Part shown: one piece after another, positions 1-6,467 of the stretch
Numbering within the stretch: the first letter of the stretch is position 1
How the letters are laid out: each line of letters opens with the position of its first letter
NCBI GenBank assembly: GCA_041665525.1
Contig: JBAYIS010000004.1
Span: forward strand, 46,996-110,995
Length of the DNA: 64,000 bases
Source: Bacteroidota bacterium
Lineage (GTDB): Bacteria > Bacteroidota > Ignavibacteria > UBA10030 > UBA8401
Direction of reading: 5' to 3'
Position numbers and translations under genes: made by a program
Notes under the pieces: generated by a model
The model's input: only the letters and a program-made list of their open reading frames with translations
What the model was told of the DNA's origin: nothing
Databases searched by the model: none

Positions 1-990
1 AACAAACCGTTGCTCGGTAAGCGTGATTATACATGGAGCATCGATACAATTGCTTATCCTGATAATAATCAAACATTAATGTATGATATTTGTGGAAATT
101 CATTTTCAGATGTTTATGTAGTAGGTCATTCGGATGGTTCAAGCGCAGCAACAATGTATCATTATGATGGTGCAAAATGGTTAACAACCAAATATCATGT
201 TAATGAAAATGGACCAATTAAAGGCCCGATAGATTTACAAGGAGTATATACATTTTCTTCTAGTGACATTTGGGCAGTAGGTGAAAGAAGCTATGAATAC
301 CCAGAAAATTCTGGACAATATGTAGATTCTGGATTAATAGTTCACTACAACGGAGTTAGTTGGCATGAACACAATATTAATGTATTTCAAACATTATTAG
401 CAATATGGGGAACGGATTCTAACAACGTTTGGATCGGCGGATTAAATGGAGAATTGTATAACACAAAAGGAAATAAATTTATAAAAGAATCATTCCCTTC
501 GAATATAGGAATTGCACAAATTGCAGGATTAAATAGTAATACCATTTACATTTTTGGTTTTTCCCAAAGTACACCCAGATATTATTCAATTTATAATTAT
601 GATGGAATAACTTGGTCTATCGTTGATTCAACAAACACATTTCCTTCAAATCCTCATTTTGGAAATTCATCACTATGGGTTGTCACAAACAATATTTTAT
701 ATTCAAGTGGATATGGAGGTGTCTTTCAAAAAAGTGATGATGGGTGGGTGAAGGTACTAAGCACTGGTACAGAAAATATAACGACAATCCGTGGAAATTC
801 AAGCAATAACCTTTTTGCTGTTGGAAGGGGACAAATATATCATTTTAATGGAGTAGATTGGTTTAAGTATGAACAATTTTCAGATCAGAACATATTATGG
901 TATCGAACATGGTCGGATGGCAATGTTGTTTTTATAATTGGTTTAACGTTGTCAGGTATTGGAAAAACGGTTGTGTTAAGAGGTTATTAA
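1..990 (+). CDS. Hypothetical propeller-like repeat lipoprotein, paralog A. Asp-box-like x-D-G-x-x-W repeats. The 5' end is truncated by the window edge.
   Basis: The reading frame is open from nt 1 (NKPLLGKRDYTWSIDTIAYP...). The protein carries repeated YHYDGAKW / VHYNGVSW / HFNGVDW motifs. The corresponding region (PVLGKRDYTWSIDTIAYP vs PVLGKRNFVWTIDTIAYP) aligns with ORF 1177..2229. Confidence 0.6.
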   Translation, partial: NKPLLGKRDYTWSIDTIAYPDNNQTLMYDICGNSFSDVYVVGHSDGSSAATMYHYDGAKWLTTKYHVNENGPIKGPIDLQGVYTFSSSDIWAVGERSYEYPENSGQYVDSGLIVHYNGVSWHEHNINVFQTLLAIWGTDSNNVWIGGLNGELYNTKGNKFIKESFPSNIGIAQIAGLNSNTIYIFGFSQSTPRYYSIYNYDGITWSIVDSTNTFPSNPHFGNSSLWVVTNNILYSSGYGGVFQKSDDGWVKVLSTGTENITTIRGNSSNNLFAVGRGQIYHFNGVDWFKYEQFSDQNILWYRTWSDGNVVFIIGLTLSGIGKTVVLRGY

Positions 991-1029
991 TCAGTTAGGA
1001 TAGTTATGAAAAAATCATTACATGTTTTA

Positions 1030-1170
1030 TTCTCCTTGTTCCCAAACTCAGTTTGGGAACAAGATCCTACCGAAGCTCCGCTTCGACCATTTGATTTTTG
1101 CTAAATATGAAACGGAGTTTCGTCAAAACTGCGCTCCCAAACAGAGTTTGGGAGCGAGAGCAAAAATAAT
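1030..1170. repeat. Structured repeat element of ~140 bp, copy 1. It contains two perfect palindromes, gttcccaaact-c-agtttgggaac and gctcccaaac-aga-gtttgggagc, plus the cgaagctccgcttcg hairpin.
   Basis: Read directly from the sequence. It is nearly identical (about 3 differences over ~135 bp) to the second copy at 2272-2410. Confidence 0.7.
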
Positions 1171-1176
1171 ACAACC

Positions 1177-2229
1177 ATGAAAAAAACACGCATATATCTT
1201 TTTATCATTTTTTCTTCAATTTCATTTTTCCAGATGGATTGCAAGGATGATTCGCCAATTCCTCCGGACAACAAACCGGTACTTGGTAAGCGCAATTTTG
1301 TTTGGACGATAGATACTATAGCCTATCCTGAAAGTTATCAGACAATGATGCGAGATATTTGGGTCGATAAAAGTAGCAATGTATTTATTGTTGGACAAAA
1401 TGAACGTGGTTATGGACAGATGTATCATTATGATGGAGTAAAATGGGACGATGTTAAGCTAAGCAATTTCCTTAATTTTGCATTTGATCTTAATTCGATT
1501 CAGGGTTTCGCCTCGAATAACATTTGGGCAGTTGGTGAAGAATTACAGACATCAATTTCAAATCCTATAAAGATTTTGGATTCCAGTTTAATAATACATT
1601 TTGATGGAGTAGTGTGGTCTAAGTATCAATTACCAAGTAGAGGGAGGTATTTAATTGATATTTCAGGTTCAAGTCCCTCAAATATTTGGGCAGGTGGCTA
1701 CCAAGGTAGTTTGTATCATTTTGATGGAAACTCATGGTCATCGGTAAGATTCCCTGATTCGTTAAATATCGGTTCAATCTTGGTGAATTCTCTGGACAGC
1801 GTTTTTATTTATGCCTATACATTAAACGGCTCATATTTTTTAAAGAAAGTTGATACTCTTTGGAGAATAATTGATTCAAACATTGGAGGTTCAACAATAA
1901 AGTTTGGAGGAAATTTAGGGCATTTAGGCGACGCAATTTATTCTATAGGTCCTAATTTATATCGATTTGAAGATGCTCAATGGACAATGATAAAGGCATT
2001 TCAAGGTCAATCTTTAACATCATTTAGCGGAAAAAATGAAACAGATTATTTTGTTGTTGGGGATAAGAATTTGGTATACCATTATAATGGAATTGATTGG
2101 TATCAATATCCTTCCTTCTTGAATGATAATGTAGTCTTTGTGTCAGTTTGGTCCGACGGGAAAGAAGTTTTTATTGTTGGATTGAATTATGGACAAATAA
2201 CTAAAACAATAATAATTCACGGGAAATAA
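1177..2229 (+). CDS. Hypothetical propeller-like repeat lipoprotein, paralog B (signal peptide with Cys; YHYDGVKW / IHFDGVVW / YHFDGNSW / YHYNGIDW repeats).
   Basis: The N-terminus MKKTRIYLFIIFSSISFFQMDC is hydrophobic and ends in Cys. The repeat motifs are shared with the upstream paralog. The ORF is 350 aa. Confidence 0.65.
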   Translation: MKKTRIYLFIIFSSISFFQMDCKDDSPIPPDNKPVLGKRNFVWTIDTIAYPESYQTMMRDIWVDKSSNVFIVGQNERGYGQMYHYDGVKWDDVKLSNFLNFAFDLNSIQGFASNNIWAVGEELQTSISNPIKILDSSLIIHFDGVVWSKYQLPSRGRYLIDISGSSPSNIWAGGYQGSLYHFDGNSWSSVRFPDSLNIGSILVNSLDSVFIYAYTLNGSYFLKKVDTLWRIIDSNIGGSTIKFGGNLGHLGDAIYSIGPNLYRFEDAQWTMIKAFQGQSLTSFSGKNETDYFVVGDKNLVYHYNGIDWYQYPSFLNDNVVFVSVWSDGKEVFIVGLNYGQITKTIIIHGK

Positions 2230-2271
2230 TTCGGAGGTTAATATGATTTGGTCTAAAAATAAAAAATACTA

Positions 2272-2410
2272 TTTCTCCTTGTTCCCAAACTCAGTTTGGG
2301 AACAAAATCCTACCGAAGCTCCGCTTCGACCATTCGATTTTTGCTAAATATGAAACGGAGTTTCGTCAAAACTGCGCTCCCAAACAGAGTTTGGGAGCGA
2401 GAGCAATAAT
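2272..2410. repeat. Structured repeat element of ~140 bp, copy 2. It carries the same two palindromic hairpins as copy 1.
   Basis: Direct comparison with 1030-1170 shows the same order and orientation, with about 98% identity. Confidence 0.7.
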
Positions 2411-2723
2411 ATCTGTCAAAGCGGAACAAAGTATTCGCAATCCTTTCGCTCATCAAAGCACGCGTCATTCCAGAAAGTGAAATAACTCATTTGAACGGAC
2501 TTGCCCGACAAAAAGCTTGTCGGGCATCCGTCCGTTCCGACAAGAAAATACCTCATCAGACTGATGCTCCCAAGCATAGCTTGAGTGAGAGAGAGATAAT
2601 AGGAGTTGACACTATATGGCATTCGGTCGGTGAGTCTGTTTCGTCAACCCGAACTTGTTTTAGGATGATTCAGAGAAAACCTCCTTCCCATTTGAACAAC
2701 TCCGCCATTTTTGCTATACTGTA

Positions 2724-2758
2724 TCCGTTCGGTCATTCCGGACGGATTTTGTATTTTT
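2724..2758 (+). terminator. Intrinsic-terminator-like hairpin, uccguucgg-ucauu-ccggacgga followed by a UUUUGUAUUUUU tract. It lies immediately 5' of the metF RBS and is a candidate attenuator of a metF leader.
   Basis: A 9-bp stem (including one G-U pair) plus a T-tract ends 11 nt before the aggag RBS and the ATG at 2770. The ~350-nt non-coding leader also contains the gcccgacaa-aaagc-ttgtcgggc hairpin at about 2503-2529. Confidence 0.45.
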
Positions 2759-3699: not shown

Positions 3700-4332
3700 A
3701 TGTCCACTGCGAAAGAATTAGTATCCATCGCGCATCGGGTTGAGGCGAAAGGACTTGTGGTCGCGACGGACGGGAATATCAGTGTCCGTCTTCCGAATGG
3801 GAATATTTTAACGACACCGACGTCGATCAACAAAGGCCAGGTAACCGAAGCGGACTTGGTGGAATTGACGATCGACGGAACGCAGGTAAACGGAACACGG
3901 AAGCCGTCCACAGAAATACAAATGCATCTGTTCATCTATCATGAACGACAGGATGTGAATGCAGTGGTGCACTGTCATCCGGTCTATGCGACGGGATTTG
4001 CTGCAGCGGGGATTCCGTTAAAGGAAAATGTTTTTCCGGAAGTCGTCGTGAGTTTAGGAAATATACCACTCGCACCGTTTGCGATGCCGTCCACGGAAGA
4101 GGTTGCTGAATCGCTCAGGCCGTTCGTAAAACAATATGATGCAGTGCTCCTTTCCAATCATGGCGCTGTTACGTACGGTAAAGATTTGTGGGATGCATGT
4201 TTTAAGATGGAAAAGGTAGAACAAGTTGCACGGATGTTATTCATTGCTGAAACTCTTGGGGGAGCTCGCCAGCTAAATGCCGCGCAGGTTACTCGCCTTA
4301 AAGAATTAGCCGCAACAGTTTACAAAAAATAA
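3700..4332 (+). CDS. Class II aldolase/adducin-family protein (fuculose-1-P aldolase / MtnB-like)
   Basis: VHCHPVYATGFAAAG is the metal-binding His motif typical of class II aldolases. The ORF is 210 aa. Confidence 0.75.
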   Translation: MSTAKELVSIAHRVEAKGLVVATDGNISVRLPNGNILTTPTSINKGQVTEADLVELTIDGTQVNGTRKPSTEIQMHLFIYHERQDVNAVVHCHPVYATGFAAAGIPLKENVFPEVVVSLGNIPLAPFAMPSTEEVAESLRPFVKQYDAVLLSNHGAVTYGKDLWDACFKMEKVEQVARMLFIAETLGGARQLNAAQVTRLKELAATVYKK

Positions 4333-4429
4333 ATCATATTACATTTATCATCTACAGTAATTGGTAAACGGATTCCTTTGCTGAGCATCCGTTGCCGGTC
4401 AATAGAAGGGGAGTTACGTTATCGTTTCG

Positions 4430-5494
4430 TTGGTACGCAGGATCTTGATTCCCGCACTTTGTATAATCACGTTTGCATTCCCGCAGTCACAACATTATTT
4501 CTATTCCGGACCCCGTGCCGGATCGGAAATGATGTACAATCCTGTTACTCTGATTTTGAATGGCAGTTATGATGTGCTGCAATTCGAGGGGGAAACGAAA
4601 CATCTCGATATGGTTCGTTACCGGCAAGCCGGTGCTCAGGTGATCTATAATCTTACGAGTCCATTAGCCGTTATATCCCGGTATGGAGGTTCAAAATTCC
4701 TCCGGCAGGAGCTGCTTCCGCTCTCTTTCACTCCTACCAAAATGCAATGGTGGCCGAATTACAATCTGCATCTTTTGGGAGGCGGGATGACGTTTGTGAA
4801 GATGACGGAATGGTACGATTATTATGGATTTCCGAATCCCCAAGTGTCATCACTGGCGACTATGGCAGTCTACCACTATCTGAATGAAGTGGTCGAAATG
4901 CGGAATCACACAGGGGATAATGTCGATCCGATTTCGGATGTTTACATATTCGACATCGGCGGGATTCTGCTCTTCAGTTCGGACAATGTGAAACAGTTTT
5001 TTAGTCAAACAGTGGTGATGTCCGACTGGTCCGGACAGCCTCTCTTTTCACTTCGGGACGGGACACTTTCCAACAACGGACAATTCTTTTCCTTCAAATG
5101 GAAAATTCCGACACTCGATCACTGGCATCTCTTCTATCTCTCCGGTGTGGAAGGAATTGTCGGTCTGTCATATAGAAAAGATGATGGTGCATCGATTTCC
5201 GCCGCTGCCGGTATGATCGGATCGAGGAGGAATACGCTGAACCGTCACACGTTTGAACAATCTGTCAGTCTGCAATGGCGTGCCGGACTGTTTTATGACC
5301 AGGACAATTCACTCCTTGCTTCGCTCTATGTCAGCGGACTTCCTACCGAAATGATCAAGCTCAATATCTATCCTGGTTACATCGATTTTGCCGGGCTCTT
5401 CTTTGGAGGAGTTCTCAGTGTCTCGCAAAACGGACATGCAACCTTTGGTTTGACGATGAATTGGTTCCCCGGTGTATCAATGTCCACCAACTAA
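4430..5494 (+). CDS. Hypothetical secreted/outer-membrane protein (TTG start as listed; start uncertain)
   Basis: A 354-aa ORF with a hydrophobic N-terminus (ILIPALCIITFAFPQ). No recognisable catalytic motifs. Confidence 0.45.
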   Translation: MVRRILIPALCIITFAFPQSQHYFYSGPRAGSEMMYNPVTLILNGSYDVLQFEGETKHLDMVRYRQAGAQVIYNLTSPLAVISRYGGSKFLRQELLPLSFTPTKMQWWPNYNLHLLGGGMTFVKMTEWYDYYGFPNPQVSSLATMAVYHYLNEVVEMRNHTGDNVDPISDVYIFDIGGILLFSSDNVKQFFSQTVVMSDWSGQPLFSLRDGTLSNNGQFFSFKWKIPTLDHWHLFYLSGVEGIVGLSYRKDDGASISAAAGMIGSRRNTLNRHTFEQSVSLQWRAGLFYDQDNSLLASLYVSGLPTEMIKLNIYPGYIDFAGLFFGGVLSVSQNGHATFGLTMNWFPGVSMSTN

Positions 5495-5620: not shown

Positions 5621-5785
5621 ATTGAATCATTGAACCATTGAATCATTGTAACATTGCAACATTGAATCATTGAATCATTGAATCATTGAATCATTGCAAC
5701 ATTGAATCATTGAAACATTGAACCGATGAAACAATGAACCGATGAATCAATGAACCGATGAACCGATGAACAAATGAATCAATTT
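5621..5785. repeat. 8-bp tandem repeat array, about 20 units. Unit family: ATTG-N-A-N-C (aatcattg / caacattg / taacattg), grading into GATGAAAC / AATGAAYC variants.
   Basis: Read directly from the sequence: ...attgaatcattgaaccattgaatcattgtaacattgcaacattg...gaaccgatgaaacaatgaaccgatg... The array ends about 15 nt before the four-helix-bundle gene start. Confidence 0.85.
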
Positions 5786-5799
5786 CTCGAGAGGTGTTC

Positions 5800-6162
5800 A
5801 TGTATCAACAGGAAGAGCTGAAGCTTCGTTCGAAGAAATTCGCATTGCAGATCATTTCATTGTTTAAGGCATTACCGAAATCTGATGATGCGAGAGTGTT
5901 GGGAAAACAGTTGCTTCGTTCCGGGACATCAGTTGCGGCAAACTATCGGGCATCATGTAGAGCAAGATCAAAAGCGGAATTCATTGCGAAGATCGGAATT
6001 GTCGTTGAAGAGGCCGATGAGACTGTTTTGTGGATGGAAATGTTGACCGAATCCGGGATACTTCCGATACAAAAAACAGAACTGTTGTTGAAAGAAGGGA
6101 ATGAACTGCTAGCAATCTTTGCAGCATCGTACCACACGGCTAAATATGGAAAAAACTCTTGA
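5800..6162 (+). CDS. Four-helix-bundle protein (TIGR02436 family: 23S rRNA intervening-sequence protein, DGR Avd-like)
   Basis: LGKQLLRSGTSVAANYRASCRARSKAEFIAKIGIVVEEADETVLWMEML matches the family signature (R-S-x-x-S-V-x-A-N-Y-R-A-x-C-R-x-R-S...EF...EEADET). The RBS gagagg sits 7 nt upstream of the ATG at 5800 (the listed ORF begins at a GTG at 5794). Confidence 0.85.
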   Translation: MYQQEELKLRSKKFALQIISLFKALPKSDDARVLGKQLLRSGTSVAANYRASCRARSKAEFIAKIGIVVEEADETVLWMEMLTESGILPIQKTELLLKEGNELLAIFAASYHTAKYGKNS

Positions 6163-6165
6163 ATT

Positions 6166-6457
6166 GAAACATTGAAACATTGAACCATTGTAACATTGAA
6201 TCATTGAAACATTGAAACATTGAAACATTGTAACATTGCAACATTGAATCATTGCAACATTGAATCATTGCAACATTGAACCAATGAATCAATGAACCAA
6301 TGAATCAATGATCCGATGAACCAATGAACCAATGAACCAATGAACCAATGAACCAATGAACCAATGAACCAATGAACCAATGAATCAATGAACCAATGAA
6401 TCAATGATCCGATGAACCGATGAACCAATGAACCAATGAACCAATGAACCAATGAAC
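6166..6457. repeat. 8-bp tandem repeat array, about 36 units, from the same family as 5621-5785. First come the CATTG-type units (gaaacattg / taacattg / caacattg), then the CAATG/CGATG-type units (gaaccaatg / gaatcaatg / gatccgatg).
   Basis: Read directly from the sequence. It begins 3 nt after the four-helix-bundle stop and ends 11 nt before the ddl ATG. Confidence 0.85.
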
Positions 6458-6467
6458 TATTTTTTCT

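Follow-up and report, generated by a model that had tools for sequence, protein, structure and literature searches.

Probable REPINs behind two tandem lipoprotein genes of an Ignavibacteria genome belong to a widespread family of bipartite hairpin repeats

We analysed a 64,000-nucleotide stretch of DNA (hereafter the window) from a Bacteroidota bacterium (Ignavibacteria; UBA10030; UBA8401; GenBank assembly GCA_041665525.1, contig JBAYIS010000004.1, positions 46,996 to 110,995), in which two tandem genes for lipoproteins are each followed by a nearly identical segment of 139 bp. It is highly probable that each segment is a REPIN, a non-autonomous inverted pair of repetitive extragenic palindromic (REP) units, of a REP family served by REP-associated tyrosine transposases (RAYTs). 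The evidence for this assignment is the anatomy of the segments, their membership in a dispersed repeat family, the rule by which units of that family form doublets, the covariation of their stems and, in other genomes, both the association with RAYT genes and the near-identity of copies within a genome. The element is of an ordinary, known kind, from a poorly described branch. A preliminary description of this DNA, made from the sequence alone, had offered independent mobility of a miniature inverted-repeat transposable element (MITE) or REP-like element as one explanation, and this suggestion is supported by REP-type doublets in many genomes, by RAYT genes flanked by the same hairpins, and by near-identical copies on separate contigs elsewhere.

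The two segments form a direct repeat (window 1030-1168 and 2273-2411) that is identical at 136 of 139 positions (98%), with mismatches between copy 1 and copy 2 at 1063 (G/A), 1092 (T/C) and 1164 (A/T), in agreement with the roughly three differences first reported. Both in a register alignment and by sliding identity, the similarity drops at once beyond both ends of the element, and the spacers that separate it from the preceding stop codons, 40 and 44 nt long, are unrelated to each other. The adjoining genes are strongly diverged, as had been claimed, with 39% identity between the proteins and only 35-55% between the DNA sequences over most of their length. The contrast in conservation between tails and genes was therefore correctly recognised, and the equal identity of gene and tail that would have spoken against it was not found, gene bodies and tails being very unequally conserved; a second near-identical block at the 5' end of the genes (1161-1271) had, however, been missed. 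The core CCCAAAC-NNN-GTTTGGG has four matches in the 64-kb window, all of them within the two elements, compared to a mean of 0.25 in shuffled windows, none of 100 of which reached four. Folding of a 151-nt stretch gave -39.1 kcal/mol as DNA (z -9.2 vs shuffles) and -58.8 kcal/mol as RNA (z -8.2).

Taken as a whole, the element forms an imperfect inverted repeat, its 50-nt arms being 72-74% complementary, and it folds as four local hairpins that are perfect in both copies (Table 1). The preliminary description saw the palindromes and their shared core but overlooked the element-wide inverted repeat, and its stem lengths of 11 and 10 bp do not hold: the arms of the left palindrome measure 14 nt in copy 1 (1035-1048 / 1050-1063) and 13 nt in copy 2, while the right palindrome has an 11-bp stem (1132-1142 / 1146-1156). 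Its hairpin inventory likewise included the small hairpin at 1071-1085 and lacked a fourth one at 1109-1121. Each element consists of a left and a right unit in inverted orientation, and these differ by compensatory changes in both stems (GTT..AAC vs GCT..AGC, and GAAGC/GCTTC vs GAAAC/GTTTC), which indicates that the local hairpins are kept perfect, while one hairpin spanning the whole element would hold mismatches.

We scanned one genome per species, 596 Gb in total, for the exact pattern G[CT]TCCCAAAC-NNN-GTTTGGGA[AG]C, and found the long hairpin in at least 120 genome stretches from many phyla, compared to about 2 expected by chance in 596 Gb according to our own estimate. Titles of the records with this exact 23-nt hairpin include Bacteroidota/Bacteroidetes (also Cytophagia and Chitinophagaceae), Ignavibacteria, Verrucomicrobiota, Chthoniobacterales, Planctomycetota, anammox genera, Cloacimonadota, Gemmatimonadota, Blastocatellia, Calditrichaceae, Caldilineaceae and Anaerolineales (Chloroflexi-type), Desulfococcaceae, Gammaproteobacteria, Methylococcales, and Thiomargarita. 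Placed in register, the matches share a tag, a linker and a second hairpin, none of which was fixed by the search pattern. The unit is bipartite and about 58 nt long, and consists, from its 5' end, of a CTC/CTT tag, the long hairpin, a linker and then a short hairpin. The long hairpin has 11-14 bp and a TCY loop of 3 nt, and its TCCCA...TGGGA clamp is invariant; the linker is GCAMTTG-like; and the short hairpin has 5-7 bp and the same AAC-TCY-GTT apex as the long one.

The stem structure of this unit is maintained by compensatory change. Among 53 aligned units, the closing pair of the long stem was C-G in 37, U-A in 15 and other or unpaired in 1, and in the short hairpin five of seven pairs had compensatory changes; the covariation score was 0.190, compared to 0.069 in shuffled alignments (0 of 500 reached the observed value) and no more than 0.088 in slid controls. 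Searching all loci with a profile, we recovered 189 full units, 131 of them in dimers, and 64 of the 68 adjacent unit pairs were arranged '+-' with the long hairpins on the outside, as in the window, so that the doublet is the standard form of the family. Elsewhere, of 28 doublets whose position could be classified, 25 were located between genes of the same direction, mostly 9-80 nt past a stop codon, a range that includes both spacers of the window. On the unit-forward strand, which carries the TCY loop, mismatches in the long hairpin are more often G.T (30) than A.C (11), a bias that the short hairpin lacks, and this excess hints that the TCY-loop strand is the folded substrate.

All-against-all clustering of 2334 open reading frames (ORFs) from the first 127 loci showed no recurrent neighbour family, and only spurious ORFs read through the repeats recurred. 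The link to RAYTs surfaced in a search for ORFs that have a unit on each side, which yielded three candidates. One of these, a 177-aa ORF at 4166-4699 of locus L063, has a forward unit ending 18 nt upstream and inverted hairpins about 33 nt downstream; it matches the NCBIfam model NF047646 ('REP-associated tyrosine transposase') with 107.7 bits (cutoff 80) and Pfam Y1_Tnp with 32.8 bits, and reaches only 22 bits on the IS200 model NF033573, below the cutoff of 55. A gene in L038, a metagenome-assembled genome of Ignavibacteria, is 50% identical to the L063 RAYT and is bracketed in the same manner, and RAYT fragments adjoin the hairpins in three further loci.

As an independent test, we fetched 80 metagenomic loci by RAYT protein alone. 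Perfect TCCCA-x-loop-x'-TGGGA hairpins lay within 250 nt upstream of the gene in 54 of 72 loci and downstream in 49 of 73, with 44 loci having them on both sides, and their density was 3.73 per kb in the 250-nt flanks compared to 0.225 per kb elsewhere in the same loci, a 17-fold difference, with none in shuffles. The nearest downstream loop was purine-rich in 46 loci, compared to 6 in which it was pyrimidine-rich, so the downstream unit is inverted. Given that the hairpins bracket RAYT genes in this way, the doublet corresponds to a REPtron, a transposase gene flanked by units, minus the transposase gene. The TCCCA/TGGGA clamp is constant, while the inner stem varies by locus (AAAC, AAGC, ACGC, AGGC, ACGG and others); RAYT identity is 0.62 within an inner-stem subtype and 0.56 between subtypes (0 of 1000 permutations), a difference that includes any effect of relatedness among the loci. 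We found no RAYT gene in the viral collection.

REPs, their doublets (REPINs or bacterial interspersed mosaic elements, BIMEs) and RAYTs are well established (PMC2817692, PMC3116915, PMC3733652). The L063 RAYT has the motifs ENHLH, VWQEG, YIHNNPV and CSSA, and that of L038 has NDHLH, LWQEG, YIHANPV (with A where the published consensus has Q/N) and YSSA; judged by motifs and length only, the associated RAYTs fit subclass 2.6 of Quentin (= Group 5 of Bertels). According to Quentin et al. 2018 (PMC6006769), proteins of this subclass have about 179 aa, the motifs NH[LIV]H, WQ and YIH[QN]NP and a serine motif after the Tyr, occur mostly in Bacteroidetes, and are encoded by genes flanked by 'atypical secondary structures' without GT[AG]G, which were found by manual inspection and recur in the genome. 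The L063 RAYT with its 177 aa and matching motifs resembles these REPtrons, as do the recurring non-GTAG structures around the genes. Table S1 of the same source gives for Desulfatibacillum alkenivorans the REP GTATGCATTCCCACGCAAAGCATGGGAACGAG (TTCCCACGC-AAA-GCATGGGAA-CGAG), which clearly belongs to the same family as the window element. As subclass 2.6 REPs are described there without GT[AG]G, this motif separates subfamilies and is not required for membership in the REP/REPIN class. The portion of that paper available does not mention a unit of two hairpins, an invariant TCCCA/TGGGA clamp, a strict doublet or breadth across phyla, and a full-text literature search for variants of the hairpin sequence found no paper. 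The 16-mers that flank Group 5 RAYTs have about 31 occurrences per replicon (PMC5581495), a low copy number that fits the presence of only two doublets in 85 kb of the source genome.

The closest well-known counterparts are the REPINs/BIMEs and RAYT (TnpA-REP) of Pseudomonas fluorescens SBW25 and Escherichia coli (Bertels & Rainey 2011, PMC3116915; Nunvar 2010, PMC2817692), which share with the present family short extragenic palindromes in inverted pairs, a single Y1/HUH transposase gene flanked by units, near-identical dispersed copies and a location after genes. They differ in that the unit here is bipartite, about 58 nt long and tagged with CTC/CTT in place of a 5' GT[AG]G guide, in the RAYT class (motifs of 2.6/Group 5 here, Groups 3 and 2 in SBW25 and E. 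coli) and in the low density of doublets in the source-genome stretch covered here (2 in 85 kb). Furthermore, whereas the hairpin sequence described here is common to many phyla, the table of Nunvar 2010 has a different REP consensus for each species (PMC2817692). The GTAG- and CGTC-tagged REP superfamilies (Di Nocera et al. 2013, PMC3733652) are similar in having a stem-loop with a short unpaired tag, in forming mostly inverted intergenic dimers and in occurring in several phyla, and the tag of the CGTC families is sometimes CCTC, compared to (C)CTC here. The CGTC families nevertheless have 8-9-bp stems that start with A-T pairs, 4-5-nt loops, a CCA tail and no linked transposase (PMC3733652), unlike the 11-14-bp stems, 3-nt loops, second hairpin and linked RAYT of the family described here. 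The locus would be explained by a selfish or commensal REPIN pair behind tandem lipoprotein genes and not by a new kind of system; as a by-product, the analysis provides a concrete REP description (bipartite unit, clamp and strict doublet) for subclass 2.6 (= Group 5), the least-studied RAYT branch, and the unit is a testable substrate for biochemistry on its RAYTs.

Elsewhere, doublets located on separate contigs of one genome are 91-98% identical, compared to a between-genome median of 0.73. Examples within single genomes are VAR18 (0.98), OFTM22 (0.97) and Loosdrechtia, with 5 doublets on 4 contigs at 0.92-0.95, and at least 13 loci were counted in Desulfococcaceae HSG8. The VAR18 and OFTM22 pairs have unlike flanks, which means that no larger segment was duplicated with them. 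Within a genome, near-identity is therefore the norm of the family, as one would predict for REPINs that replicate as a population, and the pair in the window needs no special explanation. By analogy with E. coli and with IS200/IS605 enzymes, the RAYT, an HUH/Y1 nuclease, would bind the folded hairpin in single-stranded DNA, cleave and rejoin beside it, and copy doublets to new extragenic sites without target duplication. The two window copies would then represent one REPIN lineage that had been active within the source genome, which would account for 98% identity with sharp ends beside genes whose products are 39% identical. Both copies precede the sole terminator-like site (2723-2747) and are for this reason probably present in mRNA, where they may act secondarily as 3' stabilising hairpins. 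In enterobacteria, REPs protect the upstream message.

Several observations weigh against the REPIN assignment or against transposition as the source of the identity between the copies. First, when the window was searched together with L001, a stretch of the source contig that reaches beyond the window start (85 kb together, including 10 kb upstream), the covariance model R1 with filters off found only the two doublets and one insignificant remnant, and tblastn found no RAYT in the same 85 kb; among the 120 RAYT homologues listed, most of which have no locus tag, there is no WCW35-tagged protein. The remnant (2536..2594) resembles the right arm by eye (GCTCCCAAGCATAGCTTGAGTGAGAGAG vs GCTCCCAAACAGAGTTTGGGAGCGAGAG), and a second apparent remnant upstream of paralog 1 also looked plausible by eye but was no better than shuffles and was dropped. 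Second, the copies are neighbours 1.2 kb apart that share their orientation and their relative position behind tandem paralogs, which at such low density is unlikely to arise from independent random insertions. Third, the canonical 5' GTAG guide is absent, the tag being CTC or CTT, and 14 of 55 doublets of other genomes lie inside a long ORF according to a crude ORF proxy. Fourth, no insertion polymorphism (filled vs empty site) was observed, the nearest homologues of the adjoining genes being 43-54% identical. Lastly, the paralogs share a 5' block that is 100% identical and is not a mobile element, so that homogenising recombination acts at the locus and could explain the identity of the tails as well.

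This last point underlies the rival that survives best, namely local concerted evolution, also listed in the preliminary description, in which an old tandem duplication of leader, gene and tail is kept alike at both ends by repeated gene conversion or unequal exchange; the tail would still belong to the REP family, and its 98% identity would owe nothing to transposition. The 5' block comprises about 110 nt at about 100% identity, synonymous sites included, and covers the leader, signal peptide and lipobox, with the first 34 aa identical; sliding identity is 0.97-1.00 within it, decays gradually to 0.7 and then to 0.35-0.55 in the gene, and the rest of the protein is about 35% identical. The 5' block and the REPIN tail overlap at the microhomology AAATAATA, the tails have the same orientation and nearly the same distance from their stop codons, and no further copies occur in the 85 kb. 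Mosaic structure is also seen in a second tandem pair of the same lipoprotein family (P0008/P0015, on one JGI contig), whose members agree fully at the N-terminus and in a middle block. As the 5' block is not a mobile element, recombination evidently homogenises parts of the tandem pair. The tail identity, however, begins and ends within ~10 nt of the ends of the family-consensus element, and the 40-44-nt spacer is not conserved, which is what insertion of a discrete element predicts. Unlinked copies elsewhere are equally similar, so no local mechanism is needed, and the region upstream of paralog 1 does not match the REPIN above shuffles, so that a third, flanking REPIN, which REP-mediated duplication would predict, is not seen. 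We regard concerted evolution as a possibility of some weight but a doubtful one; gene conversion between two old REPINs is a possible contributor to the 98%, and would leave the identity of the element unchanged.

A host RNA function, in which a terminator, 3' mRNA stabiliser or small RNA (sRNA) is conserved independently of mobility, appears improbable, and the sRNA, terminator or regulatory module that the preliminary description had also listed is not upheld as the primary explanation. The very stable predicted structure, the 3' untranslated or intercistronic location and the covariation that keeps the hairpins would all agree with such a function, and the G.T over A.C excess is compatible with a selected single-stranded form, although this asymmetry is absent from the short hairpin. 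However, a search of the whole window against Rfam 15 gave no match at the gathering score, and an E-value search of 950-2800 returned only spurious, sub-threshold matches of plant miRNA precursors to the long hairpin. No T-run follows the hairpins on the gene strand: the intrinsic terminator scan found no + strand site within the elements, its only sites being 2330-2312 on the - strand and the separate terminator-like site outside the elements at 2723-2747 (+). The units lie on both strands of each doublet and the hairpins flank RAYT genes, neither of which favours a role in the host transcript. Furthermore, the loops, linkers and central spacer, which vary freely across the family, are the same in both copies, and structural selection therefore cannot account for the 136 matching positions of 139.

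For REPINs moved by RAYTs, one could also substitute a MITE or palindrome-associated transposable element (PATE) moved by another transposase, such as an IS200/IS605 TnpA or a DDE enzyme acting on terminal inverted repeats. The overall inverted-repeat architecture would suit such an element, CGTC-type REPs have been reported without a dedicated transposase (PMC3733652), and in Desulfococcaceae bacterium HSG8 (L002, L023, L029, L032, L040, L041, L052 and L068) the doublets are embedded in a longer element bounded by terminal inverted repeats of its own, GGTGCAATTAAAAGTGTTAGG ... CCTGACACTTTTAATTACACC, which suggests that they are nested in, or were captured by, a second mobile element. Yet the gene flanked by the hairpins scores above the cutoff of the RAYT model and far below that of the IS200 model (22 vs 55 bits), no other neighbour protein family recurs among the 2334 ORFs, and no target-site duplication is evident at either copy, so we consider this explanation very unlikely. 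The weakest alternative, with next to no probability, is that gene and tail form integron cassettes with the tail as an attC-type site, in an array of attC sites lacking an integron-integrase (CALIN): the succession of gene, imperfect inverted repeat of about 140 nt and next gene 8 nt on, the folding as single-stranded DNA, tails more alike than the genes, and the low gene GC (34% vs 46% elsewhere) recall integrons, and several phyla that carry the repeat are known integron hosts, but none of the genes called up to 10 kb to either side encodes an integrase, an attC folds into a single long bulged hairpin with R''/L''-L'/R' boxes and not into four local perfect ones, both 'cassettes' are members of one paralogous pair, and across genomes the family is found around RAYT genes and, for the most part, as scattered single doublets. 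Anatomy and context led us to reject the integron, intrinsic terminator and PATE readings, and a CRISPR-like one was rejected on the same grounds.

A more far-reaching idea is that the REPIN tail and the signal-peptide block serve as recombination anchors around a variable surface-lipoprotein body, so that gene bodies would be swapped or converted between tandem copies or strains in a kind of surface-variation cassette exchange using a co-opted selfish repeat. A milder version is that one REP/RAYT lineage, with its invariant TCCCA...TGGGA hairpin, has spread horizontally to many phyla and into viral-classed contigs, which would contradict near-exclusively vertical REPIN-RAYT inheritance. We hold this idea to be a long shot.

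Table 1 Features of the first 2.8 kb of the window. L001 is the stretch of the source contig that reaches beyond the window start; R1 is the covariance model of the repeat unit.
Feature	Position	Strand	Description
Lipoprotein paralog 1, 3' part	1..990	+	Full gene L001 8732-9814, 360 aa, begins upstream of the window; NCBI WCW35_04015, hypothetical protein
REPIN copy 1	1030..1168		Inverted doublet of two REP units; 40 nt past paralog 1 stop, 8 nt before paralog 2 ATG
Left REP unit, copy 1	1032..1089	+	R1 62.2 bits, E 7.9e-13 (match partly by construction, as this unit is in the R1 seed alignment); tag CTT; long hairpin 1035-1063 (CTTGTTCCCAAACT-C-AGTTTGGGAACAAG); linker; short hairpin 1071-1085 (CGAAGC-TCC-GCTTCG)
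Right REP unit, copy 1	1104..1161	-	R1 68.3 bits, E 2.9e-14; short hairpin 1109-1121 (GAAAC-GGA-GTTTC); linker; long hairpin 1132-1156 (CGCTCCCAAAC-AGA-GTTTGGGAGCG); GAG tag
Identical 5' block	1161..1271	+	Matches L001 8715-8825 of paralog 1, just upstream of the window; 16-nt leader and first ~95 nt of coding sequence
Lipoprotein paralog 2	1177..2229	+	350 aa, beta-propeller-like; borderline Rax2 (PF12768, 28.3 bits vs cutoff 28.8)
REPIN copy 2	2273..2411		44 nt past paralog 2 stop; hairpins 2279-2305, 2314-2328, 2352-2364, 2375-2399
First REP unit, copy 2	2275-2332	+	R1 64.3 bits
Second REP unit, copy 2	2347-2404	-	R1 68.3 bits
Possible decayed REP unit, weak	2536..2594	-	CTC-ACTCAAGC-TAT-GCTTGGGAG...; R1 11 bits, E 0.89, not significant alone
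Terminator-like hairpin and T-run	2723..2747	+	23 nt before metF ATG (2770); consensus scan, pattern match only

The surroundings of the two elements have several further features. The paralog pair is a low-GC island, with 34% GC in the first 2 kb compared to 42-49% in the rest of the window, and either a foreign origin or selection of a different kind would be compatible with this island (window 1-2400). A 109-aa ORF that is cysteine-rich (CCQWPGCGS...LCPKH) and has no Pfam match directly precedes paralog 1, about 500 nt before the window start (L001 7985-8314). The 360-nt spacer before metF holds two hairpins: one at 2498-2538 without a T-run (ACGGACTTGCCCGACAA-AAAGC-TTGTCGGGCATCCGT), and the terminator-like one (ATCCGTTCGG-TCATT-CCGGACGGAT, then TTTGTATTTT), which from its sequence is likely to be the real terminator of the paralog pair. 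Farther into the window, at 5621-5783 and 6163-6461, are tandem arrays of an 8-nt repeat (ATTGAAYC / AATGAACC) with about 20 and about 37 copies and 82-90% matches; they flank an ORF at 5794-6162 for a 122-aa four-helix-bundle protein (Pfam 23S_rRNA_IVP), and arrays and gene together look like a discrete inserted unit.

The repeat family itself also appears in other settings. Seven IMG/VR contigs classed as viral (L122-L128) carry the exact hairpin, five of them with two matches, of which four have the two spaced 88-118 nt apart, as in doublets, and some of these hairpins adjoin ORFs that recur across the seven contigs. Beside the L038 RAYT gene (L038 5960-6640), the main type is joined by another hairpin type, CTCGTTCCCAAC-GTCCC-GTTGGGAAC, which also forms tandem arrays in L054 (2490-2800, period 118 nt) and L119 (6985-7600, period ~263-272 nt). 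In the window, a public gene call at 1022-1180 (+) of 52 aa is the REPIN translated in one frame, with no homologue except itself among 5.8 billion proteins. Comparable spurious ORFs (...FPNRVWERG..., ...RSQTLFGNA...) cross the repeats in other genomes, and R1 provides a model for masking repeats that gene callers turn into spurious small ORFs.

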